A DNA stretch of 64,000 nucleotides. Source: an uncultured Thermoleophilia bacterium. Its GTDB lineage: Bacteria > Actinomycetota > Thermoleophilia > UBA2241. Where the stretch lies: contig CAWEHE010000011.1 in assembly GCA_963808735.1 (NCBI GenBank), positions 105,607-169,606 on the forward strand, given 5' to 3'. Positions 15,922-40,051 of the stretch are shown here, piece by piece. Position 1 is the stretch's first letter; the number at the start of each line of letters is the position of its first letter. The position numbers were made by a program, and so were the translations under genes. The notes beneath the pieces were generated by a model. That model was not told where the DNA came from and ran no database searches. It worked only from the letters and a program-made list of their open reading frames with translations.

Positions 15922-16995
15922 TCAGTAGCGCCGGATCTCGCGGTAGAGCGTGTCGCGCTGCACCGGCGTGCGGCCGGCCGCACGGATGAGCCGCACCATC
16001 TCGTCGACGTCGCACTGGTTGCGCACGCCGGCGGCCGCGACGACATTCTCCTCGATCATCGTGGAACCCATGTCGTTGGCGCCGAAGGCGAGCGCCACCT
16101 GGCCCATGCGCAGGCCCTGCGTGACCCATGAGGCCTGCACATTGGGCACGTTGTCGAGGTAGATGCGCGTGACCGCGAGCATCATCAGGTAGTCGATGCC
16201 GGTGGCGGGGACGTGGCCGGCCTGCAGCTCCGTGTTGCCGGCCTGGAACGTCCATGGGATGAAGGCGGTGAAGCCGCCGGTCTCGTCCTGCAGGTCGCGG
16301 ATGCGGCGCAGGTGCTCGATGCGCTCGGCAGGAGTGTCGAGCGAGCCGAACATCATCGTCGCCGTGGTCTTCATGCCGAGCCCGTGGGCTATGCGCATCA
16401 CGTTCAGCCAGGTGTCGGTGGGGATCTTGTGCGGGCTGATGGCCGTGCGCACGCGATCGACGAGCACCTCGGCGCCGCCGCCGGGAAGGCTGTCGAGGCC
16501 GGCGGCGTGCAGCCGCGTCAGCGTCTCCTCTACGGTGAGGCCGCTCAGCTTCGAGATGTGGACGATCTCCGGCGGTGAGAGCGAGTGGATGTGGATCGGG
16601 TACCGCGCCTTGATGCCGCCGAACACCTTCTCGAACCAGCAGATATCGAGGTCCGGATGCAGGCCACCCTGCATCATGATCGCCGTGCCGCCGAGCTCGA
16701 GCGTCTCCTCGATCTTGCGGTGGATGTCCTCTTCCGCGAGGAGGTAGCCCTCCCCGCTCCCCGGCTTCTTGTAGAAGGCGCAGAAGCGGCAGCCCGAGAT
16801 GCAGTAGTCCGTGTAGTTGATGTTGCGGTCGACGATGAAGGTGACCTCGTCGCCGGGGTGCAAGCGGCGACGGACGGCGCCGGCGCGCGCGCCGGCGCCC
16901 AGCAGGTCGCCGCCCTCGAGCAGCGCGAGGGCCTCGGCGTCGGTGATGCGGCCGGCGGGCGGGGCGGCGGCGGGCGAAGTCCGGCCGCCGGTCAC
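15922..16995 (-). CDS. mqnC: Cyclic dehypoxanthinyl futalosine synthase (radical SAM)
   Basis: VTFIVDRNINYTDYCISGCRFCAF, MQGGLHP, SLPGGGAE, TTATMMFG, FIPW, QASWVTQG, GANDMGSTMIEENVV. Confidence 0.93.
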   Translation of the reverse strand: MTGGRTSPAAAPPAGRITDAEALALLEGGDLLGAGARAGAVRRRLHPGDEVTFIVDRNINYTDYCISGCRFCAFYKKPGSGEGYLLAEEDIHRKIEETLELGGTAIMMQGGLHPDLDICWFEKVFGGIKARYPIHIHSLSPPEIVHISKLSGLTVEETLTRLHAAGLDSLPGGGAEVLVDRVRTAISPHKIPTDTWLNVMRIAHGLGMKTTATMMFGSLDTPAERIEHLRRIRDLQDETGGFTAFIPWTFQAGNTELQAGHVPATGIDYLMMLAVTRIYLDNVPNVQASWVTQGLRMGQVALAFGANDMGSTMIEENVVAAAGVRNQCDVDEMVRLIRAAGRTPVQRDTLYREIRRY

Positions 16996-17495
16996 GTACC
17001 GGCCTCCGGCTCGAGGAACAGCTGGAAGCGGACGAGGTGGTCTCCGTGCGGGCCCCGGTCCGTGGTCACGGGCACGCCGCAGACCTCGTCGTCACCCGGC
17101 AGCACGGAGAAGCCGAGCGCCGTGTGAAAGGCGATGGAGCCGCCGTTGACCGGTGCGGTGACGGCGCGCACGACCGTGCGCCCGCTCGTGCGCGCGAGCG
17201 CGAAGAAGCGCCGGTACAGGTCGCCGGCGAGGCCGACGCGGCGCCACGCCGGTTCGATGCCGACGAAGTGGACGTAGGCCTCATCATCGTGATCGGGGCA
17301 GAAGAAGCCGACGAGGAACCCGATGAGCCTGTCCTCGTGCTCGACGAGCAGCGACGTCCCGCGGAAGTGCTCGAAGAAGACCTTGGGCAGCAGCGGACGC
17401 AGGTCGCGCCCGTCCCACCACCCCGGCATGACCGCCATCACGCGGTCCCAGTCGTCGGGGATGGGCCGGCGGAAGATGAGGCTGGTGCAGGACAC
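16992..17495 (-). CDS. GNAT acetyltransferase inserted between mqnA and mqnC
   Basis: LIGFLVGF...EAYVHFVGIEPAWRRVGLA...VTAPVNGGSIAFHTALGF. Confidence 0.85.
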   Translation of the reverse strand: MSCTSLIFRRPIPDDWDRVMAVMPGWWDGRDLRPLLPKVFFEHFRGTSLLVEHEDRLIGFLVGFFCPDHDDEAYVHFVGIEPAWRRVGLAGDLYRRFFALARTSGRTVVRAVTAPVNGGSIAFHTALGFSVLPGDDEVCGVPVTTDRGPHGDHLVRFQLFLEPEAGT

Positions 17496-17509
17496 GTCGC
17501 CGTCCAGCC

Positions 17510-18341
17510 TCAGGCGCCCCCGGCCCGGCCGGCCGGGTCGTCGAGGACGGGGACGTGCTTCAGCTCGCCGATGGCGGCGGCGCGCCGGTAGAACTCGCGC
17601 AGCCCGGCGCGATAGTCCGGCGTGAAGCCGAACTTCAGCTGGTCGAAGTAGTCCATGAGATAGGCCTGGCTGAAGTCGTACACCTGCGCGGCGGCGGCGG
17701 CGGTCGCCTCGGGCGCCGCCGCGCAGGCGTCACGCGAGGCGAGGAGCGCGGCGCCGACGGCGGCGGCCGCCTCTGGCCGCGCCCGGGCGAAGTCGCGGCG
17801 CGCGGCGCACACCGCGTACACCATCGGCAGCCCGGTCACGCGCTTCCACTCGGCGCCGAGGTCGAAGTGGTGCGGGTACGCCTCGACGCGCAGCAGATGC
17901 AGCGCCTCGTCGCCGATGAGCAGCAGCGCATCGAAGTCCTCGAGGACCTCGGACAGCGGCCCCTCGCGGGGCGCGAACTCCGGCGCGATGCCCCACTCGC
18001 GGCAGAGTACCTTGAGCAGGCAGATGGAGGTCGCGCTCTTCTCCGTCAGCGCGACCCGGCGGACGCTGCGCGAGCGGCGTGCGCGCGAAGAGCTGGATCG
18101 AGTCGACGGCGCCGAAGGAGCTGATGGAGACCTGCGGCAGCAGCATCAGCTGGTCGGCGTCGCGAGCGAAGGCGATCGAGGACGGCAGGGCCACGTCGAT
18201 CGCCCCCTCCACGAGCATCTCGTTGAGCGCCGCGGGATACCCCCCGACGACGTCGGCGCGCACGCCGCGAGAGGCGAGTTCCCGCTCGAAGTGGTGATAG
18301 AGCGGAAAGCAGTTGACGAACTCGATGCGCCCGACGCGCAC
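17510..18341 (-). CDS. mqnA: Chorismate dehydratase, frameshift near 18070
   Basis: MRVGRIEFVNCFPL...PAALNEML...ISSFGAVDSI joins in another frame to VALTEKSATS...ALLLIGDEALH...DLGAEWKRVTGLPMVYAV. Confidence 0.88.
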
Positions 18342-18379
18342 CGGTGGGCCTGCCGGGCGCGGCGCCTCCCACCCGGCTC

Positions 18380-19508
18380 TCAGGCGCCGGCGTCATCGTA
18401 CCGCCGCACGACGTTGTAGAGCGTGTCGCGCTCCACCGGCTCGCGGCCGGCGGCGCGGATGACGCGCACGAGCTCGGCCTTGCTGAGCTCCTGGGCCGTA
18501 TCCACGCCGGCCGCGTGACTGATCCTCTCCTCGACCACGGTACCGTCGAGGTCGTTGACGCCGAAAGCCAGTGACACCTGCGCGAGCTTGAGGCCGACGT
18601 TGATCCAGAACGCTTTGACGTGGCGGAAGTTGTCCAGCACCAGGCGGCCGACGGCGAGCATCTTGAGGTCGTCGAAACCGGTGGGCCCGGGCAGCTCACT
18701 GAGTCCGGTGTTGGCCGGCTGGAAGGACAGCGGGATGAAGGCGTTGAAGCCGCCGGTGTCGTCCTGGAGCTCGCGGAGACGGACCATGTGGTCCGCGAGC
18801 TCCTCCGGCGTCTCGACGTGGCCGTAGAGCATGGTCGCGTTGGACTTCATGCCGACCTCGTGCGCCGCGCGATGGACGTCCAGCCACGTCTGGCCGCTGA
18901 TCTTCTGCTCACAGATGAGGTCGCGCACGCGGCCGCTGAAGACCTCGGCGCCGCCTCCCGGCAGCGAGCCGAGCCCGGCGTCCTTGAGCTCCTGCAGCAC
19001 CTCGGTCACGGACTTGCCGCTGATCCTGGCGAAGTGGGAGATCTCGCTGGCGGTGAACGCCTGGATGTGGACGTCCGGGGCCAAGCTCCCGGAGCGCGCG
19101 CATCATCCCCAGGTAGTAGTCGAAGGGCAGGTCGGGATGCTCGCCGCCGACGATGTGGATCTCGCTGATGCCGCCGACGGCGAGCGTCTCGCGAGCCTTG
19201 TCGACCACCTCGTCGACGCTGAGCGTGTAGGCGTCGGCATCACCCTCGTCGTGGCTGAAGGCGCAGAACAGGCAGCGGTTGCGGCAGACGTTGGTGTGGT
19301 TGATGTGCCGGTTGCAGATGAAGTAGACCTCGTCGCCGGCGATGCGCGCACGGGCGAAGTCGGCCATCGCGCCGAGCGCGAGGATGTCGCTGCTGGAGAG
19401 CAGCTCGGTCGCATCGTCGCCGGTCAGACGCTCGGCGGCCTCGACCTTGCGCCAGAGGTGGTCGAGGCCGGAGCGCGCGGCGAGCGCGGAGATCTCACTT
19501 GGGTTCAC
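18380..19508 (-). CDS. mqnE: Aminofutalosine synthase (radical SAM), frameshift near 19085
   Basis: HINHTNVCRNRCLFCAF, EIHIVGG / HIQAFTASEI, SLPGGGAEVF, SNATMLYGHVE, HVKAFW, DLDGTVVEERISHAAG. Confidence 0.9.
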
Positions 19509-19528
19509 GGGATCGACTCCGAAGGTCG

Positions 19529-20512
19529 TCAGCTGTAGCGGTCGACGACCTGCGCCGCCACCTGCGCGAGCAGCTCACGCTCGACGGTGTCTGGGCAGGC
19601 ATCGAGGACCGACCTGGCATCTCCAATGTACCGCAAAGCGTCGCGGCGGGCACGCTCGAGCGCGCCGCTCTCCGCGACGGCGCCGAGGACGGAGGCGACC
19701 GCGGCATCCTCCGCTCCCGGACTCCCCAGGATCGGAGCGAGGTCAGGCCGGGCCTCGAGGGCGTAGATCAGCGGCAGAGTGACCGTGCCGTCGCGGACGT
19801 CGGTGCCGGGTCGCTTGCCCGTGGCGGCCTCGTCCCCGCTGCAATCGAGGATGTCGTCGAAGACCTGGAAGGCGATGCCGATGAGGCGGCCGTACTCGCC
19901 GACGGCGCCGGCCGCATCGTCCCCGGCGCCCGAGAGCAGGGCGCCGAGCGAGCACGCGGCAGAGAAGAGATCTGCGGTCTTGCGCTCGCAGCGGCGCACG
20001 TACGCGTCCACGCCGACGCCGACGTCGTAGGCTTCGGCGCGCTGCAGGACCTCGCCCTCGCTGAGCCCGACGGCGGTGGCGCTCAGCAGGTCGACGGCCG
20101 CAGGGACGCCCGCGCCGACCAGCTCGGAGAAGGCGCGGGCCAGCAGGTAGTTGCCGGCGGACACCGCCGTGGCGGCGCCGTACTGATGCGCCACCGTGGG
20201 ACGGCCGCGACGGAGCTCGGCCCGGTCGAGGACGTCGTCGTGGACGAGCGTCGCCATGTGGAGGAGTTCGACCGCGGCCGCGGCCCGCAGCACCGGCTCG
20301 CCCGCCGCCTGGCCGCGGCGGGCGCAGAGCAGCGTGAGGAGCGGCCGCACCCGTTTGCCTCCCGCAGACAGCGTCGCCCGGCAGGCGTCGCCGAGGTCGT
20401 CGGGGTACTCCGATGCGACCGTTGTGAGACGCTCCTCGACCAGCTCGAGGCCGCGCGCAAGGCGCCGCTTCTGCGCGGCCGAATGCCATGTCAGCGATGG
20501 TCTGGGGCTCAC
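19529..20512 (-). CDS. Polyprenyl (hepta/octaprenyl) diphosphate synthase
   Basis: GGKRVRP, ELLHMATLVHDDVLD..LRRG, KTADLF, FQVFDDILD. Confidence 0.92.
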   Translation of the reverse strand: MSPRPSLTWHSAAQKRRLARGLELVEERLTTVASEYPDDLGDACRATLSAGGKRVRPLLTLLCARRGQAAGEPVLRAAAAVELLHMATLVHDDVLDRAELRRGRPTVAHQYGAATAVSAGNYLLARAFSELVGAGVPAAVDLLSATAVGLSEGEVLQRAEAYDVGVGVDAYVRRCERKTADLFSAACSLGALLSGAGDDAAGAVGEYGRLIGIAFQVFDDILDCSGDEAATGKRPGTDVRDGTVTLPLIYALEARPDLAPILGSPGAEDAAVASVLGAVAESGALERARRDALRYIGDARSVLDACPDTVERELLAQVAAQVVDRYS

Positions 20513-21285
20513 GCCGGCACCTCACCCACGTGGAGAGCCACGGCACCGAAACCGAGGCGCCGGTAGCGCACGTTCACCAGCCCGGCGCCGGCCATGATGG
20601 CGGCGAGTCCGTCTGCCCGCGGGAAGGCCGCCACCGACGCGGGCAGATAGGCATAGGCCGAGGGGTCGCCGGTGACGACCCGGCCCAGGATCGGCACGAC
20701 GCGGCCGAGCCAGAGGTCGTGGAAGCGCCTGCCCGGCCCGTCCGGCGCCTGGGTCGACTCGAGGCAGACGACGCGGCCGCCGGGGCGCGTGACCCGCGCC
20801 ATCTCGCGGAAGGCGCGGGGCACGTCCGGCACGTTGCGCACCCCCCAGCCGACGGTGACGGCGGCGAACTCGCCGTCGGAGAAGGGCAGCGAAAGCAGGT
20901 CCCCGGCGACGAAGGCGTGCGGTACGGGCAGGCCGCGGCGCTCGCGAGACGCGGCCTTCTCCCGCGCCCTTACGATCATGGCCGGCGTGAAGTCGAGCCC
21001 CGTGACGCGACAGCCCGGGCACGCGTCCACAAGGCCGAAGGTGAGGTCGCCGGTACCGCAGCATGCATCCAGGGCCTGGTCGCCCGGAGCGAGTGCAGCT
21101 TCGCCGGCAGCCATCCTCCTCCAGCGGCCGTCGAGGCCGACGGTCATGATGCGGTTCATGAGGTCGTAGCGCGGCGCGATGCCGCCGAACATGGCCTCGA
21201 TCCGCGAGGGGTCGCGATCGATCGGGAGGTCATCGGACGCGCGCGCGGGCCGGCCGGACGTCGTCAGCGCCGGCCCCCGTCCCAC
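20509..21285 (-). CDS. ubiE: Demethylmenaquinone methyltransferase (UbiE/MenG)
   Basis: MFGGIAPRYDLMNRIM, LDACCGTGD, WGVRNV, RVTRPGG, AYAYLPASV. Exact start uncertain. Confidence 0.92.
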   Translation of the reverse strand: MGRGPALTTSGRPARASDDLPIDRDPSRIEAMFGGIAPRYDLMNRIMTVGLDGRWRRMAAGEAALAPGDQALDACCGTGDLTFGLVDACPGCRVTGLDFTPAMIVRAREKAASRERRGLPVPHAFVAGDLLSLPFSDGEFAAVTVGWGVRNVPDVPRAFREMARVTRPGGRVVCLESTQAPDGPGRRFHDLWLGRVVPILGRVVTGDPSAYAYLPASVAAFPRADGLAAIMAGAGLVNVRYRRLGFGAVALHVGEVPA

Positions 21286-21875
21286 GGCGGGAACAGATCC
21301 TGCTCGAAGCCGAGGGCGCTCATCACCTTGCCGGCGACGTGATCGACGACGTCCTCCAGCGACCGCGGCCGCGAGTAGAAGCCGGGCATCGCCGGCATGA
21401 CGACGGCGCCGGCCTCCGCCAGCTCGAGCAGCCGGCGCAGGTGGATCTGCGTGAGCGGCGTCTCGCGCGGGACCACGACGAGCGGCCGCCGCTCCTTGAG
21501 GGCGACGTCGGCGGCGCGATGCATGAGCGTGCGCGTCGTGCCGAGGGCGATGTGCGCCGCCGTCGACATCGAACAGGGGCAGATGACGACGGCGTCGGGG
21601 GCGCTGCTTCCGCTGGCGGGAAGCGCCCCCAGGTCGTCCGGCAAGAAGACGTCCGCCGTCACGCCGGTCCGCTCGAGGAACGCCGCCGTGACCGCGTCGC
21701 GCCCGGCGGCGTCCAGCTCGAGCTCGTGCTCGAGCACGAGGACGCCGCTCTCGGAGATGCTGAGCTGGAGCGCGCAGCCGGCCGCCGCCAGCGCCTGTAC
21801 CAGCCGCGCGGCGTAGGGCGCGCCGCTCGCGCCGCTGACGCCGACGAAAACGCTCTGTGGTGGTCTACCGGTCAT
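21264..21875 (-). CDS. ubiX: Flavin prenyltransferase
   Basis: VGVSGASGAPY, ASGS, PCSMST, RAADVALKERR, PRETP, MPAMPGFY. Confidence 0.95.
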   Translation of the reverse strand: MTGRPPQSVFVGVSGASGAPYAARLVQALAAAGCALQLSISESGVLVLEHELELDAAGRDAVTAAFLERTGVTADVFLPDDLGALPASGSSAPDAVVICPCSMSTAAHIALGTTRTLMHRAADVALKERRPLVVVPRETPLTQIHLRRLLELAEAGAVVMPAMPGFYSRPRSLEDVVDHVAGKVMSALGFEQDLFPPWDGGRR

Positions 21876-21911: not shown

Positions 21912-23120
21912 CTAGTTGATCGAGCCGGCGTGGCACTGGCCACCGTAGCAGCCATTGGGCCCGGTGCCGCCGTTGCCGTGGCACTTCATGCACACGCTGC
22001 CCTGGTTGTACGTGTAGTTCGGATGATCGCCGATGAAGGCGCTGCTGTGGGGCAGCTCGACGCCGTGGCAACCCACGCAGAAGGAGTTGCTGTGGCACTT
22101 GCTGCACAGGCCGGGCGAGCTCAGGGCCGTGCTCGGGTGCGTGGAGAGCCAGCCGGACGGATGCGGCATCTGCAGGCCGTGGCACTTGATGCAGCTGTCC
22201 TGCCCGTGGCACTTGACGCACTTCTCCCGATTCTTCTGACTCGCCTGGGAGTAAGCGCCGTGGCTCGACAGCCAGCTGCCCGGATGCGGCATCACGAGCC
22301 CGTGGCAGTCGATGCAGAACGTCGGGTCGTCCTTGAGGTGGCAGGAGACGCAGATGCTCTTGCCGCGGTCGACGACGATCGGGCCGTGGCTCTTCATCCA
22401 ACCCTCGGGATGCGGCATGTCGAGCCCGTGATGGCAGTCGGCGCAGATCGTTCCGGTCTTGTGGCATCCCTGACACTGTGACGGGGTCACCTTCCCCGTG
22501 ATCGGGACGTTGATCTCCTCCGGAGGCGCGCCCCCGACGTGGCAGATGTCGCAGTCGTCCGGCAGCCGCTTGCCGTCGTGGCAGCGCGCGCAGATCGGCA
22601 TCTTGTTCTGCGAGACGCGGGCGACCTCGAGCTGCGTTCCGGGGTGGCTGATATTGGCGTGGCAGGCCGTGCACTGATAACCGGCTTCCCGGAGACCCGT
22701 GTGGTTCACGCGGATGTTGTTGTAGACCTGGTCGCGCTCGATCTGGGACTTGGGGTGGCACTGGACGCAGTTGGCGGTGCCCACGGCGGTGGTGATGGGG
22801 CGCTGGTACGTGTCGGACACGTAGAGGATGAGGTTCGTGACGCCCTGGAGGTTCCTGATGAGGTAGTTGAAGACGCCGGGCTTGGTGTGGCACTTCTGGC
22901 AGCCGACGCCGGCGCGATAGTGAGGCGACTGCTTGTACGTTTCCACCTCGGGCTGGATGACGTGGCAGACCTCGCAGGCCGCGATGCTGTTGACTGCCGA
23001 GAAGGCGATGACGGCCGCGACGAAGACGACCCCGAGGGCGGCGAGGACGCCGATCAGCCACGACCTCGGCACCCTGCCCTCGAGGAGCACGCGGCTCTTG
23101 GGGGTCCTGTTTCTGGGCAC
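21912..23120 (-). CDS. NapC/NrfH-like membrane-anchored multihaem cytochrome c (15 CxxCH plus a C-terminal CX4CH)
   Basis: One N-terminal TM, CEVCH...SPH..VGCQKCH core, repeated MPHPxxWxxxH-dihaem units, terminal CYGGQCH. Manual count. Confidence 0.9.
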   Translation of the reverse strand: MPRNRTPKSRVLLEGRVPRSWLIGVLAALGVVFVAAVIAFSAVNSIAACEVCHVIQPEVETYKQSPHYRAGVGCQKCHTKPGVFNYLIRNLQGVTNLILYVSDTYQRPITTAVGTANCVQCHPKSQIERDQVYNNIRVNHTGLREAGYQCTACHANISHPGTQLEVARVSQNKMPICARCHDGKRLPDDCDICHVGGAPPEEINVPITGKVTPSQCQGCHKTGTICADCHHGLDMPHPEGWMKSHGPIVVDRGKSICVSCHLKDDPTFCIDCHGLVMPHPGSWLSSHGAYSQASQKNREKCVKCHGQDSCIKCHGLQMPHPSGWLSTHPSTALSSPGLCSKCHSNSFCVGCHGVELPHSSAFIGDHPNYTYNQGSVCMKCHGNGGTGPNGCYGGQCHAGSIN

Positions 23121-25112: not shown

Positions 25113-25246
25113 GCTGACTCCCTTCCCCAGTCCGGGCGCCGCGCTCCACAGCTCGGCCGCCGGGCACACTCCCCCACGAGGCTATCGCCGTCTTGCCGGC
25201 GAGCCCCCTCGTCGCGACCTACCGCGACGAGCCCCACACGCATTCG

Positions 25247-25277
25247 AGTCTACCAGTGATTGTGAAGCGGTTCACCC
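25247..25277 (-). promoter_or_regulatory. Rex operator overlapping an internal promoter
   Basis: TTGTGAA-GCGG-TTCACCC (25260-25277) versus consensus TTGTGAA-N4-TTCACAA. Extended -10 TGGTAGACT at 25255-25247; rex is in the same cluster. Confidence 0.75.
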
Positions 25278-28016: not shown

Positions 28017-28101
28017 CTGTGCGTCCCCCTGGGAGTGCGTGATGGTGGCCGGTGCGTCCACGAGATTGCGAGAGCGGATGCCGGACGCTTCGGCGGCGGT
28101 C

Positions 28102-28110
28102 ATTGTACCA
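28102..28110 (-). promoter_or_regulatory. Extended -10 promoter element for cytochrome module 2
   Basis: TGGTACAAT on the minus strand; an identical element precedes module 1. Confidence 0.55.
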
Positions 28111-32652: not shown

Positions 32653-34089
32653 TCAGGCGAACGGCAGGCCGAACTCCGCCCAGCGCTCGTTGACACGGCG
32701 GACGACGGCCGGGTCCATGGCGAGCTCCTCCGGCCACTCGCGCTGGTGCCCCTCGTCGGGCCACGACTTGGTGGCGTCGATGCCCATCTTGGCGCCGTAG
32801 CGCGCCGTCGGGCTCGAGTGGTCGAGCACGTCGAGGGGGCCGCGCGAGATGACGCAGTCCCGCTCCGGGTCGACGTTGTTGAACACGCGCCACGTGACCT
32901 CGCTGTAGTCGTGCACGTCGACGTGCTCGTCGACCACGACGACGAACTTGGTGAACATCATCTGGCCCATGCCCCACACCGCGCTCATGATCTTGCGCGC
33001 GTGGCCGGGGTACTCCTTGCGGATGCTGATGATGGCGCAGTCGTGGAAGACGCCCTCGATGGGCAGGTCCATGTCGACGATCTCGGGCTGCACGAGCTGC
33101 AGCAGCGGCAGGAAGAGGCGCTCGGTGGCCTTGCCGAGGTAGGCGTCCTCCATCGGCGGCTTGCCGACGATGGTCGCCGGGTAGATGGGGTCGCGGCGGT
33201 GACTCATGGCGGTGAGGTGGAACACCGGGTACTGGTCGGCGAGCGAGTAGTAGCCGGTGTGGTCGCCGAACGGCCCCTCGAGCCGCGTCTCGCCCTTCTC
33301 GACGTAGCCCTCGAGGACGATCTCGGCGTCGGCCGGCACGGAGAGGTCGACGGTGGCGCACTGCGCCATCTCCACCGGCTCGCCGCGGAGGAAGCCGGCG
33401 AACATGAACTCGCTGATGCCCGGCGGGAGCGGAGCCGTGGCGGCATACGTGACCGCCGGGTCGGTGCCCAGGGCGACCGCGACCTCCATGCGGTCGCCGG
33501 CTTCGCGGAAGTTGGCGGCGCCGTCGTGGTGGATGTGGATGTGCATGCCGGTGGTCTGGCCGTCGAAGACCTGGAGCCGGTACATGCCGGCGTTCTGGCG
33601 GCCCTGCTGGTCTTTGGTCACGACGATCGGCAGCGTGATGAAGGGGCCGCCGTCGCCGGGCCACGTGGTGAGCACCGGCAGGCGCGCGAGGTCCGGCGGG
33701 TCGACGACGACCTCGCGGAAGGCGGCCTTCTTGCCGTATTTGGGGCCGTAGGAGGCGAGCTCCTTGAGCTGGCCGAGCGCCTTGACCTTGCCGACGAGGC
33801 CACTCGGCACCTGCAGTTCCAGCAGCCCGCCGATGCGCCTGGCGATGTCGTCGAGCGGCGCGCCCAGGGCCAGCTCGAGACGGCGGTACGAGCCGAGCTG
33901 GTTCATGAGGACCGGCACGGCGGGCTGGCCTGCCGGTCGCCTCGGCTGCTCGAACAGCACGGCCGGACCGTGCGCCTTGCTGGCGCGGTCGGCGATCTCC
34001 GCCATCTCGAGATAGGGGTCGACCTCGGGGCGCACGCGGGCCAGCTCGCCCTCGCGTTCCAGCAGACTGATGAAGGCACGCAGGTCCAC
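32653..34089 (-). CDS. ubiD: Menaquinone-biosynthesis UbiD-family decarboxylase
   Basis: DLRAFISLLEREGEL, WPGDGGPFITLP, NAGMYRLQ, EGPFGDHTGYY, GKPPMED, KMGIDAT. Confidence 0.95.
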   Translation of the reverse strand: MDLRAFISLLEREGELARVRPEVDPYLEMAEIADRASKAHGPAVLFEQPRRPAGQPAVPVLMNQLGSYRRLELALGAPLDDIARRIGGLLELQVPSGLVGKVKALGQLKELASYGPKYGKKAAFREVVVDPPDLARLPVLTTWPGDGGPFITLPIVVTKDQQGRQNAGMYRLQVFDGQTTGMHIHIHHDGAANFREAGDRMEVAVALGTDPAVTYAATAPLPPGISEFMFAGFLRGEPVEMAQCATVDLSVPADAEIVLEGYVEKGETRLEGPFGDHTGYYSLADQYPVFHLTAMSHRRDPIYPATIVGKPPMEDAYLGKATERLFLPLLQLVQPEIVDMDLPIEGVFHDCAIISIRKEYPGHARKIMSAVWGMGQMMFTKFVVVVDEHVDVHDYSEVTWRVFNNVDPERDCVISRGPLDVLDHSSPTARYGAKMGIDATKSWPDEGHQREWPEELAMDPAVVRRVNERWAEFGLPFA

Positions 34090-34091
34090 GG

Positions 34092-34676
34092 TCACCTCCC
34101 GGCGACGGCTTCGAGCTCGCGCAGCAGCGGAGCGGGATCGGGCAGATCGAGGCGGGTCGCGGCGCGCGCGACGGCGGCCGGCACGTCCGCTGGAGGAGAC
34201 GCATGGAAGCCGGCGTCGACCTCGTCGAAGAGCGCGCCCACTGCCTCCGACGCCGCGCCGGCGTGCTGGGCGGCGATGCCGGCCACGGCGTAGGCCCAGA
34301 GCGCATCGTCGTCGGCGAACGCAGCGCCGGCGCTGCGCAGGTACGAGCACGCCGCCATGAGACGGGCGAGCAGGCCGACGGCGTCGGCGTCCCCGCGCGT
34401 GGCGATGCCGCGCAGGCCGCGCGCGTAGTAGCAGTCCCCGGCCAGCAGCCGGGTCTCCAGATCGTCCGCCGCGAGCGCCAGGGCGCGGCTCTCGCGGTAG
34501 TGCAGCAGGTAGCCCTCGTAGATCAGCTCGATGTCGGTCGCGAACCCGTCGTCGGCGTCGGCATCGAGCGCTGCGTACAACGCTCCCCAGCGCGGAGCGG
34601 GAGCGGCGGCCGGCGCCGGGCCGAAGGCCTCCCCGGCCGCCGCCAGCGCCGCGGCCAAGCCGGCGGCGAGGTCCAC
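34092..34676 (-). CDS. Hypothetical protein, possibly a prenyl-synthase small subunit (HepS-like)
   Basis: Coupled between rex and ubiD; ELIYEGYLLHY...LLAGDCYYARGL resembles isoprenoid-synthase helices but lacks DDxxD. Confidence 0.6.
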   Translation of the reverse strand: MDLAAGLAAALAAAGEAFGPAPAAAPAPRWGALYAALDADADDGFATDIELIYEGYLLHYRESRALALAADDLETRLLAGDCYYARGLRGIATRGDADAVGLLARLMAACSYLRSAGAAFADDDALWAYAVAGIAAQHAGAASEAVGALFDEVDAGFHASPPADVPAAVARAATRLDLPDPAPLLRELEAVAGR

Positions 34677-34678
34677 GG

Positions 34679-35329
34679 TCAGGCCTGTTCCCGGTCGAGG
34701 TAGAAGGACAGCGACATCAGCTCGCTGGAGAGGTCGACCTGGCGCACCAGCATGCCCTCGGGGGCGTGCACCTTGATGGGCGCGAAGTTGAGAACGGCCC
34801 TGACGCCGGCCGCACCGAGCCGCTGGACCGTGCTCTCGGCCTCGGCGGCCGGCACGGTGACCATGGCGATGTCGACCCTCTCCTTGCGGCAGAACTCGTC
34901 CAGCTCGTGCACGCCGCGCACGCGGCTTTCCTCGCTCGAGCCGTAGCGGGCGCCGACGACCGTCGCCGAGCTGTCGAACATGCCGACGAGGCGGAAGCCC
35001 TGCTCGCCGAAGCCGCGGTAGCGAGCCAGCGCCGTGCCGAGCAGACCGGCTCCCACGATGACCACGTTCCAGGTGTGATCCAGCCCAAGGCAGCGCGTGA
35101 TCTCGTCGACGAGGACGGGCACCTCGTAGCCCACCCCGCGGGTGCCGAACTCCCCGAAGTAGGAGAAGTCCTTGCGGATCTGCGCCGCGTTCAGGTCGAT
35201 CATCTCGGCGAGGTCCTTGGACGAGACCCTGTCGACTCCCCGGGCGCGCAGCTCGCGCAGCTTGCGCAAGTACAGCGAGAGGCGCGGCACGGTGACGCTG
35301 GGGACCTTCTTCCTGTCGAAGTCGCGCAT
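34679..35329 (-). CDS. rex: Redox-sensing transcriptional repressor Rex
   Basis: RLSLYLR, VSSKDLA, QIRKDFSYFGEFGTRGVGYEV, IVGAGLLG, LNFAP. Confidence 0.95.
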   Translation of the reverse strand: MRDFDRKKVPSVTVPRLSLYLRKLRELRARGVDRVSSKDLAEMIDLNAAQIRKDFSYFGEFGTRGVGYEVPVLVDEITRCLGLDHTWNVVIVGAGLLGTALARYRGFGEQGFRLVGMFDSSATVVGARYGSSEESRVRGVHELDEFCRKERVDIAMVTVPAAEAESTVQRLGAAGVRAVLNFAPIKVHAPEGMLVRQVDLSSELMSLSFYLDREQA

Positions 35330-35331
35330 CT

Positions 35332-36624
35332 TCAGGCCTCCACTCCCGCGAACCAGTCGGCCGCGGCCGCGGCCGCGAGCTCGAGGTCGTCGTCGGTGAG
35401 CGCCAGCGAGATCATCGCCGCCTCGAACTGCGACGGCGCGAGGTACACGCCGCGCTCCAGCATGTGCCGCCAGTAGGAGGCGAACGCGGTCGTGTCGGCG
35501 CCCTTGGCCTCCGCGAAGCTCCGCACCGGACCCTCGCAGAAGAACATCGTGAGCATCGGGCCGACGCGGTTGATGGTGACCGCGCGACCGGCGGCGCCGG
35601 CGGCCGCGCGCAGGCTCTCCTCGACGCGGGCGCCGGCCGCCTCGAGGCGCTCGTACACGTTGGGCTCGGCGAGCACTCTCAGCGTCGCCGCGCCGGCCGC
35701 CATGGCCAGCGGATTCCCGGACAGCGTGCCGGCCTGGTAGGTGGAGCCGAGCGGCGCCACGGTCTCCATGAGCTCGCGGCGCCCCCCGAAAGCGCCCACG
35801 GGAAGCCCGCCGCCGATGATCTTGCCCAGGGTCGTGAGGTCGGGCATGACCCCGAACCGCTCCTGGGCGCCTCCCCACGCGACGCGGAAGCCGGTGATGA
35901 CCTCGTCGAAGACGAGCACCGCACCGTGCTGCGTGCACAGCGCCCGGCAGGCCTCGAGGAACCCGGGCTGCGGCGGCACGACGCCCATGTTGCCGGCGAC
36001 GGGTTCGACGATGAGCGCCGCGATCTCCTCGCCGCGCGCCGCGAAGAGCTCGGTCAGCGCGGCGACGTCGTTGTACTCCACGAGCAGGGTGTCGGCGGTC
36101 GTGCCTTTGGTGACGCCGGGGCTGTCGGGCAGCGCGAGCGTGAGCACGCCGCTGCCGGCGGCGGCCAGGAAGGCGTCGGAGTGGCCGTGGTAGCAGCCGA
36201 TGAACTTGACGATCTTCTCGCGGCCGGTGAAGCCGCGGGCGACGCGCACGGCGCTCATCGTCGCCTCTGTACCGGAGTTCACCATGCGCACGAGGTCGAC
36301 CGACGGGACGGCCTCGCAGATGAGGCGCGCCAGCTCGACCTCGAGCTCGGTCGGCGCGCCGTAGCTGGTGCCCAGGTCCACCTGGGCCTTGAGCCGGCCC
36401 ACGACCTCGGGGTGCCCCCAGCCGAGGATCATGGGGCCCCACGAGGACACGAAGTCGACGAACTCGTTGCCGTCGGCGTCCCAGAGGTGACTGCGCTCCG
36501 CACGCGTGACGAAGAGCGGGTGCGGCATGCCGACACCCTTCATCGCGCGGACCGGCGAGTTCACGCCTCCGGGGATGTACTTGAGCGCCTCTTCGAAGAG
36601 GCGAGCGGACGTTGCGGTGTTCAC
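35332..36624 (-). CDS. hemL: Glutamate-1-semialdehyde 2,1-aminomutase
   Basis: PGGVNSPVRA, RMVNSGTEATMSA, GCYHGHSD, FDEVITGFR, GKIIGGGLPVGAFGG, QAGTLSGNP. Confidence 0.97.
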   Translation of the reverse strand: MNTATSARLFEEALKYIPGGVNSPVRAMKGVGMPHPLFVTRAERSHLWDADGNEFVDFVSSWGPMILGWGHPEVVGRLKAQVDLGTSYGAPTELEVELARLICEAVPSVDLVRMVNSGTEATMSAVRVARGFTGREKIVKFIGCYHGHSDAFLAAAGSGVLTLALPDSPGVTKGTTADTLLVEYNDVAALTELFAARGEEIAALIVEPVAGNMGVVPPQPGFLEACRALCTQHGAVLVFDEVITGFRVAWGGAQERFGVMPDLTTLGKIIGGGLPVGAFGGRRELMETVAPLGSTYQAGTLSGNPLAMAAGAATLRVLAEPNVYERLEAAGARVEESLRAAAGAAGRAVTINRVGPMLTMFFCEGPVRSFAEAKGADTTAFASYWRHMLERGVYLAPSQFEAAMISLALTDDDLELAAAAAADWFAGVEA

Positions 36625-36803
36625 CCGGGTCCTCCCTGCGAGTGAGAATGCCTGTGCAGGCTGTGGACTATACTACGCGCCGCCGCGCGGCATGTGCGTC
36701 GGTACACAACCTACCCGCCATTCGCGAAGGCGCATCCCCACAGGAAGAAGCGGACGGCCGCCGAACGGCTGAGCAAGCAGCCACCCGGCCCGAGGAGCGC
36801 GCC

Positions 36804-37244
36804 ATGCCAGTGACCATCCGCCACGCCTGCCCCGGTGACGAACCGGCCATCGTGCGCCTCGTCCGCGAGATGGCCGAGGGCGAGGGAGACGTCTCGGCGA
36901 CCGACGAGCACTACGTCCGGCACTTCCTCGCCTCGCCGGTCAGCGGCGCGCTCCTCGCCGAGGACGGCGCGGACGCCGTCGGCCTGCTCAGCTACGCCAT
37001 CGTGCCGGGGCTGTTCCACACCGCGGACTCCGGGCTCATCGAGCTGCTGGTCGTGACCAGCGCCCGAAGGAGCGAAGGGATCGGGCGCCGTCTCGTCGAG
37101 ACGGCGCTGCGCGTCTTTCGCGAAGCCGGCTGCGCCGAGGCTTCGGTGAGCACCGGCGCCGACAACCAGGCGGCGCAGAAGGCCTACTGCGACGCCGGCC
37201 TCACGGAGGCGTCGGTCCTGCTCGAGACGCACTTCGAGGCGTGA
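36804..37244 (+). CDS. GNAT acetyltransferase
   Basis: LVVTSARRSEGIGRRL, NQAAQKAY. Confidence 0.8.
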   Translation: MPVTIRHACPGDEPAIVRLVREMAEGEGDVSATDEHYVRHFLASPVSGALLAEDGADAVGLLSYAIVPGLFHTADSGLIELLVVTSARRSEGIGRRLVETALRVFREAGCAEASVSTGADNQAAQKAYCDAGLTEASVLLETHFEA

Positions 37245-37251
37245 CCCGCTG

Positions 37252-37779
37252 ATGGACGAACGGCGACTGCTGCGGCGGGCCACCGAAGCGGACGCTGCGT
37301 TCATCGCCGAGATGCTGGCGGAGGCGGCGAGCTGGGAGCGGCCGTCCGGCGAGCCGCCCCCTGCAGTGGCCGAGCTGCTCGCGGTCCCGCAGGTGGCCGA
37401 CTACGTCGAGGGGTGGGGCCGCCCCGGCGACGAAGGCGTGGTCGCCGAGGTGGACGGCGAGCCGGCCGGCGCCTGCTGGTACCGCCGCTTCACCGCCGAG
37501 AGACCGGGGTACGGCTTTCTGGGCGAGGAGGTCCCGGGGCTCGGCCTCGGCGTTTCGCCGGCCCATCGCCGCCGAGGCCTCGGCTCGGCGCTGCTCGCTG
37601 CGACCGTCGATCTCGCCCGCGAGCAGGGCATCGGGGCCCTCGGCCTCAGCGTCTCCGAGAGGAACGCGACCGCCCGCCGCCTCTACGAGCGGGCGGGCTT
37701 CGTCGTCGTCGATCGTGAGGGCGACTCACTCACCATGCGGCTGGATCTGCGCGGCCCGGCGACAGCAGACGCAGCCTGA
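37252..37779 (+). CDS. GNAT acetyltransferase
   Basis: GVSPAHRRRGLGSALL, LSVSERNATARRLYERAGF. Confidence 0.88.
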   Translation: MDERRLLRRATEADAAFIAEMLAEAASWERPSGEPPPAVAELLAVPQVADYVEGWGRPGDEGVVAEVDGEPAGACWYRRFTAERPGYGFLGEEVPGLGLGVSPAHRRRGLGSALLAATVDLAREQGIGALGLSVSERNATARRLYERAGFVVVDREGDSLTMRLDLRGPATADAA

Positions 37780-37786
37780 ACGCCGA

Positions 37787-37821
37787 AGAAGTCTCAACCT
37801 CTACTAAAGGATGAGACTTCT
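37787..37821. repeat. AT-rich inverted repeat between convergent genes (terminator or protein-binding site)
   Basis: AGAAGTCTCA-A-CCT-CTACTAA-AGG-A-TGAGACTTCT. Confidence 0.6.
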
Positions 37822-37863
37822 GCAGGCTGGCTCTTGCTCGTCTGAGGGGTCAGGTCTGGCGGC

Positions 37864-39000
37864 TCAGCCGACGGCCGGAGCGCACCAGCCCTTGGGTACG
37901 TAGGCGCAGTACGGCTCTTCGGCCATGTAGTCGCCGGTCGCCTCGTAGGCCCGCGCGCGGCAGCCGCCGCAGACCTTCTTGAACTCGCAGGCGCCGCACT
38001 TGCCCTTGAGGCCGTCGAAGTCGCGCAGTTCGTTGAAGAGCGGCGAGTCGCGCCAGACCTCGGGGAACGTCTGCTTGCGCACGTCGCCGGCGACCTTGTC
38101 GAAGTAGCCGCAGCCCTGCACTTCGCCGATGTGGCTGATGAAGCAGAAGCCGATGCCGGCGAGGCAGCCGCGGCTGAGCGTGTTCATGCCGCCGTGGCTG
38201 TGCGGGTGCACCTCGAGCTTGCGGCCCTGCGCCTTGGCGCGCTGGCGCATGACGCGCCAGTAGTGCGGCACGTCCGTGGGCTTCATGAACAGGTCGCTCT
38301 CCTGCTGGGCGTCGTACATCCACTCGAGCGCCTTCTCGTACTCGTCCGGCGGCAGCTCCTGCGCCTCCAGCTCCTTGCCGCGCCCGGTGGGGACGAGCAT
38401 GAACGGATGGAAGCTGACGGCGCCGAGATCGTCGGCGAGCTGGAGCAGCGCCGGCAGGTAGTGGACGTTGAGCTTGGTGATCGTCGAGTTGATCTGCACC
38501 TCGACGCCGGCGTCCAGGCAGTTGCGGATGCCCCGCACCGCCCCGTCGAAGGCGCCGGGGACGCCGCGGAACTCGTCGTGCTCCGCGGCGTTCGGGAAGT
38601 CGATGGAGATGCTCACGCGCGCGATGCCGACGTCGTGCATGCGCCGCGCGACCTCGGGCGTGACCAGCGTGCCGTTGGGCGACATGACCGTGCGCAGGCC
38701 CTTGCCGATGGCGTACTCGGCGATGTCGAAGATGTCGGCGCGCATGAGCGGGTCGCCGCCCGTCAGGATGAGGATCGGGTTGGCGAACGAGGCGATCTGG
38801 TCGACCAGCGTGAACGCCTCGGCCGTGCTGAGCTCGCCCGCGTAGGGTCCGTGGACGGCGCTGGCGCGGCAGTGCACGCAGGCGAGGTTGCAGCTGCGCG
38901 TGACCTCCCAGGCGATCACGCGCGGAGGTGCGACGCCGTCCCCGGCGTCGCCGGGCCGCGCGGTCATGGCGTGGGGGTTTTCAGCGTGTGGATGATGCAA
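37864..39000 (-). CDS. ahbD: Haem b synthase (radical SAM/SPASM, alternative haem pathway)
   Basis: IAWEVTRSCNLACVHCRASA, RGCLAGIGFCFISHIGEVQGCGY, GKCGACEFKKVCGGCRARAY; lies next to hemB. Confidence 0.85.
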   Translation of the reverse strand: MHHPHAENPHAMTARPGDAGDGVAPPRVIAWEVTRSCNLACVHCRASAVHGPYAGELSTAEAFTLVDQIASFANPILILTGGDPLMRADIFDIAEYAIGKGLRTVMSPNGTLVTPEVARRMHDVGIARVSISIDFPNAAEHDEFRGVPGAFDGAVRGIRNCLDAGVEVQINSTITKLNVHYLPALLQLADDLGAVSFHPFMLVPTGRGKELEAQELPPDEYEKALEWMYDAQQESDLFMKPTDVPHYWRVMRQRAKAQGRKLEVHPHSHGGMNTLSRGCLAGIGFCFISHIGEVQGCGYFDKVAGDVRKQTFPEVWRDSPLFNELRDFDGLKGKCGACEFKKVCGGCRARAYEATGDYMAEEPYCAYVPKGWCAPAVG

Positions 39001-39079
39001 ACCGGTACCAGTGTGCCAGAGACGGGCGGGCGGCGCAACGCACGAACGGGTGCGCCGCCCGGCCCTCTCCGACAGCCGC

Positions 39080-40051
39080 CTACGCGATCCAGGCGGCGAT
39101 GTCCTTGGCGTGGTAGGTGATGATGAGGTCGGCGCCGGCGCGCTTGATGCCGGTGACCGCTTCCATGACGGCGCGCTGCTCGTCGAGCCAGCCGTTGGCC
39201 GCCGCCGCCTTGATCATCGCATACTCGCCGCTCACGTTGTACGCCGCCAGCGGGAACTTCGTCTCCTGCTTGACGGCGTGGATGACGTCGAGGAACGGGA
39301 TCGCCGGCTTGACCATGATGATGTCGGCGCCTTCCTCGATGTCGAGGAGCGACTCGCGCACGGCCTCCTCGAGGTTGGCCGGGTCCATCTGGTAGGTCTT
39401 GCGGTCGCCGAACGCCGGCGCCGACCCGGCCGCCTCGCGGAACGGCCCGTAGAAGGCCGAGGCGAACTTGCTCGAGTACGACATCAGGATCGTCTCCGTG
39501 AGGCCCTCGTCGTCGAGCGCGTTGCGGATGGCGGCGACGCGCCCGTCCATCATGTCGCTCGGGGCGACGATGTCGGCTCCGCTCTCGGCGTGTGTGATCG
39601 CCATCTTCGAGAGCAGTTCCAGGGTGACGTCGTTGACGATCTCGCCGTCGTGGATCACACCGCAGTGGCCGTGGTCCATGTACTCGCAGAGGCACACGTC
39701 GGTGATCACGATGAGGTCCGGGAACTCGTCCTTGATCGCGCGCACCGCCATCTGGACGACGCCCTCGGAGTCGTAGGCGCCGCTCGCGGCGGAGTCCTTG
39801 TGCGACGGGATGCCGAACAGCAGCACCGCCGGGATGCCGAGCCTGACGATCTCTCGCACCTCGGGCAGCAGGTTGCCGATGGAGAGCTGGAAGCAACCGG
39901 GCATCGACGAGATGGGGTTCTTGACGTTCTCGCCCGCGATGACGAAGAGCGGGTAGATGAGGTCCTCGAGATGAAGCCTGGTCTCGCGCACCATGTCCCG
40001 GATGGCCGGGGTGCTGCGCAGGCGCCTCATGCGGTAGCTGGGGTAGTACAT
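39080..40051 (-). CDS. hemB: Porphobilinogen synthase
   Basis: DVCLCEYMDHGHCG, APSDMMDGRV, FYGPFREAA, MVKPA, AAYNVSGEY. Confidence 0.97.
   Translation of the reverse strand: MYYPSYRMRRLRSTPAIRDMVRETRLHLEDLIYPLFVIAGENVKNPISSMPGCFQLSIGNLLPEVREIVRLGIPAVLLFGIPSHKDSAASGAYDSEGVVQMAVRAIKDEFPDLIVITDVCLCEYMDHGHCGVIHDGEIVNDVTLELLSKMAITHAESGADIVAPSDMMDGRVAAIRNALDDEGLTETILMSYSSKFASAFYGPFREAAGSAPAFGDRKTYQMDPANLEEAVRESLLDIEEGADIIMVKPAIPFLDVIHAVKQETKFPLAAYNVSGEYAMIKAAAANGWLDEQRAVMEAVTGIKRAGADLIITYHAKDIAAWIA

Follow-up and report, generated by a model that had tools for sequence, protein, structure and literature searches.

CbcBA, CbcL, and ImcH are menaquinol oxidases that serve extracellular electron transfer (EET), and CbcBA is described as a seven-haem c-type cytochrome with a C-terminal transmembrane (TM) helix (CbcA) together with a dihaem b-type protein (CbcB), with fusions known from lineages that include the Chloroflexi (10.1101/2021.04.15.440034). 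Chains for EET that operate without porins are described in Gram-positive bacteria (PMC7829351), and OcwA is presented as the cell-surface terminal reductase of a Gram-positive bacterium that is related to enzymes of the NrfA/MccA type (PMC6703420). In the Actinomycetota, a survey noted a lack of detectable EET genes together with a possible search bias; the same FeGenie-based preprint reported “CbcL homologues” in 8 of 19 metagenome-assembled genomes (MAGs) of Thermoleophilia, so that the general idea of EET in this class is already in print (10.1101/2022.03.26.485925). Here, a cluster of seven multihaem cytochrome genes is described from an uncultured member of the Thermoleophilia, in a stretch of 64,000 nucleotides (the window; contig C11, positions 105607-169606) of a 3.24-Mb genome that comprises 35 contigs, has a G+C content of ~70%, and is rated 90% complete. 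The cluster is considered moderately likely to encode a Rex-controlled electron chain from menaquinol to the cell surface, of the Gram-positive (monoderm) type, within the operon that makes its two cofactors.

Haem motifs, bc modules, and anchored chains

About 79 haem-binding motifs in seven cytochromes had been counted in the initial annotation, and a recount returned 74 CxxCH and five non-canonical motifs in seven minus-strand open reading frames (ORFs) between positions 21912 and 32508. These ORFs, named cytA to cytG, hold 11, 7, 12, 7, 11, 11, and 15 CxxCH motifs, respectively, and represent 7 of the 12 ORFs with at least five CxxCH in the whole genome, all within 10.6 kb. The non-canonical motifs are conserved among orthologues. 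The first motif of cytA reads CxxCK in 25 of 25 orthologues, and that of cytF reads CxxCKSH in 30 of 30; the CxCH and Cx3CH motifs of cytE are kept in 17 of 17 sequences, with CxCH reading as plain CxxCH in 5 of them; and the C-terminal Cx4CH of cytG is unchanged in all 27 sequences compared, in which each of the 16 cytG motifs is invariant.

A total of 25 ORFs, chosen by third-position G+C, were scanned against Pfam and NCBIfam. These scans bore out the gene order that had been claimed: hemB, ahbD, two plus-strand GNAT genes, hemL, rex, a hypothetical gene, ubiD (SCO4490 type), cytA, a fusion of c7 and b domains (cytB), a gene for a protein with EAAK-type repeats, ubiA, cytC, cytD, a cytochrome b gene (cyt b), cytE, cytF, cytG, ubiX, ubiE, a polyprenyl synthase gene, mqnE, mqnA, a GNAT gene, and mqnC. 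The two plus-strand GNAT genes are the sole interruption in a co-oriented minus-strand run from hemB (40105) to mqnC (15922). The co-location of the cytochromes with genes for menaquinone and haem synthesis is thereby confirmed and is strengthened by conserved synteny, and the operon has the membership of a futalosine operon, with mqnA, mqnC, and mqnE accompanied by ubiD, ubiA, and ubiX of the SCO4490-4492 type and with TIGR03699, TIGR03700 (partial), and TIGR03701 scoring above or near their cut-offs. Among the 25 ORFs there was no match to a family of molybdopterin enzymes, NrfA, hydrogenases, or porins, in agreement with the earlier statement that the cluster encodes neither a catalytic subunit nor a porin.

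Two modules in the cluster resemble CbcBA as published. Both cytD and the N-terminal half of cytB encode a seven-haem c-type protein that has a signal peptide and a TM helix at its C-terminus, and in each case a dihaem b protein with conserved ligand His is adjacent (PF01292 at 30.5 bits in the fusion and 24.3 bits in the separate protein). In the b protein H43, H85, H198, H214, and H219 are invariant in 13 sequences, and in the TM tail of cytD His256 and His270 are at least 90% conserved in 15 sequences. CbcB is described with four TM helices and three His, the fourth His coming from CbcA (10.1101/2021.04.15.440034); the b protein here has five TM segments and at least four invariant His of its own, alongside the two conserved His of the c7 tail. 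The initial annotation had referred to proteins of the CbcL type. A bc fusion is present and in this respect recalls CbcL, but it carries 7 CxxCH rather than the 9 of CbcL, and the bc modules are better fitted by the description of CbcBA (7 haems, C-terminal TM). The fusion is a single frame in 14 related loci, and in 11 loci (layout II, below) the same module is encoded by two genes, of which the b gene shares 74-79% identity with the b domain of the fusion; the fused and split forms are thus one module. Further, the GTG start of cytB overlaps the stop of cytA (GTGA), and cytD shares 4 nt with cytC and 8 nt with cyt b; these overlaps link each 12-haem gene to the c7 and b genes of its module. 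The presence of a 12-haem NrfH-like partner gene for each bc module distinguishes this arrangement from CbcBA and CbcL. Additionally, a metagenomic protein of 975 aa (P0243) joins a c7 domain (7 haems), a cytochrome b, and an 18-haem chain of dihaem units, aligning to cytB at E=8e-64 and to cytG, starting at its third haem, at E=1e-33. Such a Rosetta-stone fusion favours the idea that the bc unit and the anchored chains function together.

The anchored chains are encoded by cytA, cytC, cytF, and cytG, each of which has one hydrophobic segment close to the N-terminus (Kyte-Doolittle scan) and scores above the gathering cut-off of PF03264 (NapC/NirT; 24.1 bits). A single N-terminal TM anchor and the PF03264 match are shared with NrfH, NapC, and CymA. 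In NrfH, haem 1 is bound by a CxxCHxM motif with Met as ligand. This motif is kept in cytC as CGSCHSM (CGSCHxM in 5 of 5 orthologues checked); the corresponding motif is CEVCHVI in cytG and CxxCK in cytA and cytF. Motif spacing is alike in all four proteins: after a tetrahaem head (spacings of ~23, 45, and 31), short (9-14) and long (26-34) spacings alternate, which reveals tandem dihaem units of ~40 residues, four in each of the 12-haem proteins (cytA, cytC, and cytF) and six in cytG. The signature of the unit is C..CH-x(4-8)-C..CH...PHP..W...HG, with two haems in about 40 aa. Unlike NrfH, NapC, and CymA, these proteins therefore carry 8 or 12 extra haems in dihaem units, have an invariant CxxCK as first motif in cytA and cytF, and lack an NrfA, Nap, or Tor partner in the genome scans; no five-haem protein of the CxxCK type, as expected of NrfA, was present among the multihaem ORFs of the genome.

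Relatives of the chains are numerous. An exhaustive profile search with the cytG alignment returned 2839 representatives at E<=1e-3, 1160 at E<=1e-10, and 171 at E<=1e-30, some of which are 725-1313 aa long with 32-37 CxxCH; their source annotations consist of generic names only, and CxxCK is the first motif in just 1 of the 150 representatives listed. A search of PDB chains with the cytG sequence gave a single chance-level match. The best solved-structure matches of the cytG profile, both weak, were the dodecahaem “nanowire” GSU1996 (PDB 3OV0; E=1.8e-7) and the nine-haem cytochrome c of Desulfovibrio (E=6.3e-5), and among these structures the best match of cytE was weak too (E=1.6e-5). The likeness lies in modular repeats of small haem units, and CxxCH spacing accounts for most of the matches; here, the unit is a dihaem of ~40 aa, as opposed to the c7-type trihaem domain there.

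The remaining cytochrome, cytE, has no TM segment besides its signal peptide, and the P-A-x-A site of the latter is invariant in 17 sequences. Pro/Thr-rich linkers or inserts are found in four of its orthologues and four extra haems in two. No match between cytE and filament cytochromes was obtained in sequence searches.

Partner proteins, conservation, and a putative Rex operator

A secreted cytochrome had been proposed as the end of the chain. The secreted cytE may play this part, but the likely end also includes a nine-haem protein encoded on another contig (C3). With nine CxxCH and a match to OcwA of Thermincola potens (PDB 6I5B) at E=5.9e-24 (residues 168-585 versus 111-453), this protein falls within the OcwA family. 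Its ORF encodes 765 aa with a signal peptide and an Ig-like tail that is common to two other secreted proteins; all nine motifs are CxxCH, without the CxxCK active-site motif, and its Pfam matches include a weak one to Cytochrom_C552. Of 24 genomes of the genus, 19 have the OcwA-like gene and 18 an orthologue-level match to cytG. A total of 17 genomes encode both and 4 encode neither (21 of 24 concordant); the 3 discordant genomes are 63-68% complete.

Other candidate partners do not track the cluster. An HAO-family octahaem-type protein (L050:7472-9244; G000:C16), which matches PDB 6H5L at E=7e-24 and combines a PKD domain with an Ig-like domain at the C-terminus, the latter also seen in the OcwA-like protein and in a neighbouring 812-aa secreted protein, was rejected because it occurs in only 5 of the 24 genus genomes. 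Its N-terminus is probably frame-shifted. The six molybdoenzymes of the genome comprise NuoG, three formate-dehydrogenase types, and two PhsA/DmsA-like enzymes, with no Nap, Nar, Nrf, or Tor among them. The orphan PhsA/DmsA-like enzyme was likewise rejected, a close orthologue being found in 0 of the 24 genus genomes at E<=1e-100, a lower bound given that the first look was stricter.

Genes for cytochrome c maturation, for which a search had been suggested, were found elsewhere in the genome. System I is encoded by contiguous ccmE, ccmF, ccmA, ccmB, and ccmC genes together with a CcsA/HemX-like gene, hemA, and hemC (L052; G000:C22:92000-100000), a second haem-synthesis block linked to cytochrome c maturation. 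Only one CcmF was found in the genome, and CcmE is missing in 3 of 4 cluster-free genomes of the genus. No Omp85 was detected in the 90%-complete genome, in a search in which 7 diderm controls were positive, and no porin family was matched in the cluster, so that neither scan returned an outer-membrane beta-barrel partner of the MtrCAB/Pcc type.

The comparison of synteny across Thermoleophilia that the initial annotation had suggested showed that the arrangement recurs. A cytG protein search of GTDB species genomes yielded 35 loci, all from MAGs, of which 27 are titled Thermoleophilia and 8 Actinomycetes or Actinomycetota. Based on tblastn of the window proteins, these comprise 28 complete loci, 5 short contigs, and 2 distant loci, and the arrangement recurs in all 28 complete loci in one of three layouts. 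In layout I, that of the window (15 loci), modules lie on either side of ubiA; in layout II (11 loci), one unfused module follows ubiA; and in layout III (2 loci), one fused module precedes it. A core of cytE-cytF-cytG adjoining ubiX is constant in all layouts, and the arrangement is kept down to 64% cytG identity. Four genomes of the genus that are 93-100% complete (G001, G003, G006, and G009) lack cytG, and their operon runs unbroken from hemB through rex, the hypothetical gene, ubiD, ubiA, and ubiX to mqnC. In G001, a 2-haem remnant ORF persists between ubiX and ubiA and thus points to cytochrome loss rather than to an empty ancestral site. Moreover, in a genome from a different family (G032), the part of this supercluster from ahbD to hemL holds eight cytochromes, with 75 CxxCH in all, along with two cyt b genes, so that the association with hem and mqn genes holds at two insertion points.

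A putative operator for the redox-sensing repressor Rex lies between the stop of cyt b and cytE. The Rex operator consensus is TGTGAA-N4-TTCACA, from which the palindrome upstream of cytE differs by one mismatch. Only three sites with at most one mismatch occur in the 3.24-Mb genome, and the two others flank a second rex gene (L068:1568-5337; G000:C11:56567-60336) with near-perfect operators upstream and downstream. This paralogue heads an operon that encodes a response regulator and NuoE-like and NuoF-like (FMN, 4Fe-4S) proteins, which we take to be a classic Rex target. The site upstream of cytE is present in 16 of 32 loci having cytE, including 16 of the 17 loci of layouts I and III. Its half-sites are conserved, its spacer bases are variable, and it is usually the sole such site in ~21 kb. 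No Rex site with at most two mismatches was found in the cytochrome-free operons L059-L061. At the sequence level, the cluster thus combines a putative operator in the promoter region with a rex gene, as would be expected of a member of a Rex regulon. A weak terminator-like hairpin closes cyt b just ahead of the operator, and a Rex-controlled unit is suggested to start at cytE. A scan for sigma-70 sites returned 0 promoter-like sites. One of the closest known arrangements is rex-hemACD of Streptomyces coelicolor, in which rex also lies beside haem biosynthesis genes and the operator is also of the TGTGAA-N4-TTCACA type; here, unlike there, the operator stands ahead of multihaem cytochrome genes within a menaquinone operon. 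A further Rex-like palindrome with two mismatches is located in the window at 53473-53488, inside a gene for an 852-aa protein with a dihaem cytochrome c peroxidase/MauG domain (PF03150; 52927-55485, minus strand).

Parts of the stretch were recovered in 20 sequencing runs from 17 studies, mostly freshwater-sediment and wetland metagenomes. These included a sediment metatranscriptome (runs X20 and X19) with contigs 90-95% identical to parts of mqnE, the polyprenyl synthase gene, cytF, cytE, cyt b, and rex.

A proposed menaquinol-to-surface path and its alternatives

The observed gene content, motifs, topology signals, conservation, co-occurrence, and operator conservation can be arranged into an outward path for electrons. 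Menaquinol would be oxidised at the membrane by the bc modules (cytB, and cytD with cyt b) and by the NrfH-type tetrahaem heads. Electrons would then pass along anchored rods, in which the NrfH heads are lengthened by four or six dihaem units to 12 or 16 haems, and be transferred to the secreted 13-haem cytE in the wall zone, from where the OcwA-like nine-haem protein would reduce extracellular or poorly soluble acceptors, e.g., Fe(III)/Mn(IV) minerals or humic matter. Such a path presumes that these proteins form complexes and that the assembly spans the wall. Rex would de-repress at least cytE-cytF-cytG when NADH accumulates, that is, when other acceptors are short. The menaquinol-to-surface path is favoured because its parts match published building blocks of EET, namely CbcBA, OcwA, and the porin-free chains of Gram-positive bacteria. 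The conduit anatomy that had been claimed, with entry modules, anchored haem chains, and one secreted cytochrome, stands and is strengthened by the conserved synteny, the lack of Omp85 in the genome, and the conserved Rex operator upstream of cytE; EET itself stays an interpretation of these parts. The system is like the pathway of Thermincola potens/ferriacetica (PMC6703420) in being a monoderm multihaem chain without a porin that includes a nine-haem OcwA homologue with a signal peptide. It differs in belonging to another phylum, in an entry of the bc type and extended NrfH type, in the extra Ig-like tail of the OcwA-like protein, and in genes that are embedded in a menaquinone/haem operon.

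Several points weigh against this path. The chain, unlike that of Thermincola, is a prediction from the genome of an uncultured lineage. Kinship to CbcA, CbcB, and CbcL of Geobacter is drawn by analogy with their published description rather than from a sequence match, and the separate cyt b falls under the PF01292 cut-off of 30.1 bits. On model scores the four anchored cytochromes are not NrfH proper, because the NrfH equivalog model TIGR03153 gives 40-53 bits, far under its cut-off of 134.2, with an alignment that covers positions 4-138 of 138; the elongated shape of the chains is suggested by motif spacing and repeats. Attachment of a CxxCK haem needs a dedicated lyase (NrfEFG) in E. coli, but Shewanella does without one (PMC12285233). 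Attachment of the CxxCK haems of cytA and cytF would have to rely on the single CcmF found in the genome. The counts of co-occurrence between cytG and the OcwA-like gene overstate their support because related genomes are not independent, and are supportive rather than statistical proof; G032, moreover, has no OcwA-like gene at E<=1e-20. None of the 11 layout II loci has a Rex site with at most two mismatches. The genome also encodes haem-copper and bd oxidases. The metatranscriptome contigs hint at expression, with strand and level not readable from them and DNA carry-over possible. Lastly, the OcwA paper speaks of catalytic versatility (PMC6703420), and since OcwA belongs to a fold group related to NrfA and MccA a soluble acceptor is conceivable.

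The cluster could accordingly be a delivery system for a multihaem reductase of soluble substrates, in which the OcwA-like protein works in the wall space as a reductase of nitrite, hydroxylamine, sulfite, or the tetrathionate type and the haems act as wire and electron store. Partnership with a soluble-substrate reductase encoded elsewhere had been named in the initial annotation as fatal to its proposal, and one half of this has come about, in that the OcwA-like protein co-occurs with the cluster; OcwA is described as a terminal reductase of EET, though one akin to enzymes of the NrfA/MccA type. The weak Cytochrom_C552 match, the HAO-family protein with its PKD domain, and the classical role of NrfH-type proteins in serving NrfA also speak for a soluble substrate. 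Yet the OcwA-like protein is without CxxCK, NrfA, Nap, Nar, and Tor were not found in the genome, and the HAO-like gene is confined to a minority of the genus. Further, 79 haems in seven proteins with four anchored rods far exceed known systems of the NrfHA type, and a location at the wall or surface is suggested by the Pro/Thr-rich linkers in cytE orthologues and by the Ig-like tail of the OcwA-like protein. A dedicated soluble-substrate system is thus considered unlikely.

An inward chain, which would be fed by reduced humics, Fe(II), a cathode-like mineral, or a syntrophic partner and would supply the menaquinone pool or, beyond it, the oxidases, is judged quite improbable. Multihaem chains and NrfH/Cbc-type modules can in principle run in either direction, the haem-copper and bd oxidases could act as sinks, and the habitat is redox-interface sediment and wetland; however, de-repression by Rex answers excess NADH and fits electron disposal better than uptake, the presence of CODH/ACS and of formate dehydrogenases suggests a metabolism that is anaerobic and rich in reductant, and no Cyc2-type or other known marker of iron oxidation turned up, although no search was aimed at them. 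It is also conceivable that a mobile cytochrome island was inserted into the menaquinone operon and is carried along without a functional tie to quinone or haem synthesis, as presence and absence vary within the genus and the three layouts place modules on either side of ubiA. Such neutral insertion appears very improbable given that no transposase or integrase family was matched in the 25 ORFs (Pfam, NCBIfam), that the genes share one orientation and either overlap or are separated by short gaps, that the arrangement persists to the lowest cytG identities noted above, that a second family (G032) keeps its cytochrome cluster in the hem/mqn supercluster at a different point, and that G001 records loss.

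Beyond the menaquinol-to-surface chain itself, a broader proposal is offered tentatively, as possible rather than probable. A widespread, uncultured Thermoleophilia genus of sediment, wetland, and soil may respire extracellular acceptors through a wall-spanning apparatus of ~79 haems, which would be the first cytochrome-based EET of the Actinomycetota. Its wires would form a new modular class of NrfH heads extended by plug-in dihaem units, with 12-16 haems here and as many as 32-37 in relatives from metagenomes, and a CxxCK quinol-side haem in two paralogues, and it would be switched by Rex along with a menaquinone/haem operon, such that cofactors and outlet are made together as NADH piles up. 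If so, cytochrome-based extracellular respiration would extend to a phylum that is dominant in soil and sediment. Markers for the cycling of Fe, Mn, and humics in wetlands and lake sediments would then be available in the cytE-cytF-cytG core, in NrfH heads that carry dihaem units, and in the OcwA-like protein, and the chains would represent a modular “haem wire” of natural origin that changes in length by steps of 2 haems. The cluster also raises biochemical questions about the role of a CxxCK haem at an NrfH-type quinol site and its attachment by one CcmF, and the nesting in a menaquinone/haem operon with a Rex operator provides a testable case of co-regulation of an electron outlet with its cofactors. 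In a literature search, most subscription journals being outside its reach, neither this cluster, nor multihaem genes within the futalosine operons of bacteria, nor a CxxCK motif in proteins of the NrfH/NapC type was found described; nor did the search return the nesting with its three layouts, the Rex operator, the architecture of NrfH head plus dihaem units, the invariant CxxCK at haem 1, the co-occurrence with OcwA, or the triple fusion.

Feature coordinates, frame changes, and neighbouring genes

The features of the cluster are listed in Table 1. No Rfam family reached its gathering score between 15000 and 42000.

Table 1. Positions in the window, strand, and supporting evidence for the genes and signals of the cytochrome cluster and the surrounding operon.
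Feature	Position	Strand	Evidence
hemB, porphobilinogen synthase	39080..40105	-	NF006762 511 bits, cut-off 297
ahbD, haem b synthase, sirohaem-dependent route	37864..39000	-	TIGR04545 511 bits, cut-off 500
Two GNAT acetyltransferase genes, opposite strand	36612..37779	+	PF00583
hemL, glutamate-1-semialdehyde aminomutase	35332..36624	-	TIGR00713 588 bits, cut-off 527
rex, redox-sensing transcriptional repressor	34679..35320	-	NF003995 243 bits, cut-off 126; also in cytochrome-free operons
Conserved hypothetical, 194 aa, basal operon member	34092..34676	-	In cytochrome-free operons L059-L062; no Pfam or NCBIfam match
ubiD-type menaquinone decarboxylase, SCO4490 family	32653..34080	-	TIGR03701 607 bits, cut-off 496
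cytA, NrfH-like 12-haem, N-terminal TM 24-42, CxxCK then 11 CxxCH	31564..32508	-	PF03264 40.9 bits
cytB, 7-haem c domain (signal peptide, TM) fused to 5-TM dihaem b, FdnI/HydC-like	29786..31567	-	PF01292 30.5 bits, cut-off 30.1; c7 families
EAAK gene, membrane protein, ~17 (S/P)EAAK-type pentapeptide repeats, frameshifted	29035..29785	-	GC3 frame switch near 29560, alternative-frame translation
ubiA-type prenyltransferase, MqnP-like	28149..29018	-	TIGR01475 287 bits, cut-off 181; MqnP models score under their cut-offs
cytC, NrfH-like 12-haem, TM 52-70, first motif CGSCHSM (NrfH-type CxxCHxM)	27054..28103	-	PF03264 61.3 bits
cytD, 7-haem c, signal peptide and C-terminal TM helix, CbcA-like	26194..27057	-	Family scans, motif count, TM scan
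cyt b, 5-TM dihaem b-type quinol oxidoreductase subunit	25278..26201	-	PF01292 24.3 bits; TIGR01583 E=6.5e-13
Terminator-like hairpin and T-tract at end of cyt b, weak	25288..25311	-	7 sites in region versus 4.3 +/- 1.6 in shuffles
Rex-operator-like palindrome TGTGAAGCGGTTCACC	25261..25276		Between cyt b stop and cytE; 1 mismatch to TGTGAA-N4-TTCACA
cytE, secreted 13-haem (11 CxxCH, CxCH, and Cx3CH), cleavable signal peptide	24174..25169	-	Motif count, TM scan
cytF, NrfH-like 12-haem anchored, first motif CxxCKSH	23124..24164	-	PF03264 52.7 bits
cytG, NrfH-like 16-haem anchored, last dihaem unit with Cx4CH	21912..23120	-	PF03264 45.7 bits
ubiX flavin prenyltransferase	21264..21875	-	TIGR00421 180 bits, cut-off 109
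ubiE/menG methyltransferase	20509..21285	-	TIGR01934 205 bits, cut-off 158
Polyprenyl diphosphate synthase	19529..20512	-	PF00348 220 bits
mqnE, aminofutalosine synthase, split near 19084	18380..19520	-	TIGR03700 on C-terminal part
mqnA, split near 18066	17510..18392	-	PF02621 on C-terminal part
GNAT acetyltransferase	16992..17495	-	PF00583
mqnC, cyclic dehypoxanthinyl futalosine synthase	15922..16995	-	TIGR03699 489 bits, cut-off 428

Several genes are interrupted by frame changes. Both mqnE and mqnA carry a 1-bp insertion (at ~19084 and ~18066, respectively) relative to 3 of 3 relatives compared, and the extra bases are missing from the short-read contigs of other runs, at 18067 in runs X1 and X5 and at 19081-19083 in X1, X19, and X20. 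COX1 likewise lies in two frames (G000:C23:8184-9525). The frame changes are probably consensus indel errors rather than signs of pseudogenes, since in mqnA and mqnE the other runs lack the extra bases. In its G+C-supported frame, the EAAK gene stops just ahead of ubiA, and its N-terminal ~85 aa are conserved among relatives. The repeats have a 15-nt period in 17 copies at 29112-29365. Inside this array, contigs of the DNA runs X1 and X5 show a 120-nt joint that goes back (window 29182-29301), which indicates that the copy number of the pentapeptide varies between populations.

Among the neighbouring genes, a protein of the phosphorylase superfamily (PNP_UDP_1) is encoded at the edge of the window (2-808, minus strand) and, judged by its family, is a candidate for the pathway's futalosine hydrolase/nucleosidase (MqnB-type). 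DUF4388 (PATAN-like) proteins are encoded directly upstream of hemB (window 40175-41536, minus strand) and near the OcwA-like gene on contig C3 (L047:5969-6892). Elsewhere in the genome, a CODH catalytic subunit and acetyl-CoA synthase (CODH/ACS, 986 bits) are encoded beside NuoG/Fdh-like and GltD-like proteins (L071:8686-13076; G000:C14), such that Wood-Ljungdahl-type metabolism stands alongside haem-copper and bd oxidases in one genome. Two further loci hold multihaem cytochromes. At one (L051:7150-9372; G000:C21:15149-17371), a 7-haem cytochrome c gene lies directly downstream of a gene for a 492-aa protein with ferric-reductase-like TM and NAD-binding domains (NOX/FRE type), and the pair is a possible quinone-independent outlet from NAD(P)H to a cytochrome. 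At the other (L049:5307-8784; G000:C15), genes for a 221-aa His-rich membrane protein with no family match and a 593-aa pyridine-nucleotide-disulphide oxidoreductase are followed by that for a 12-haem cytochrome, a set that may form another membrane electron-input module.

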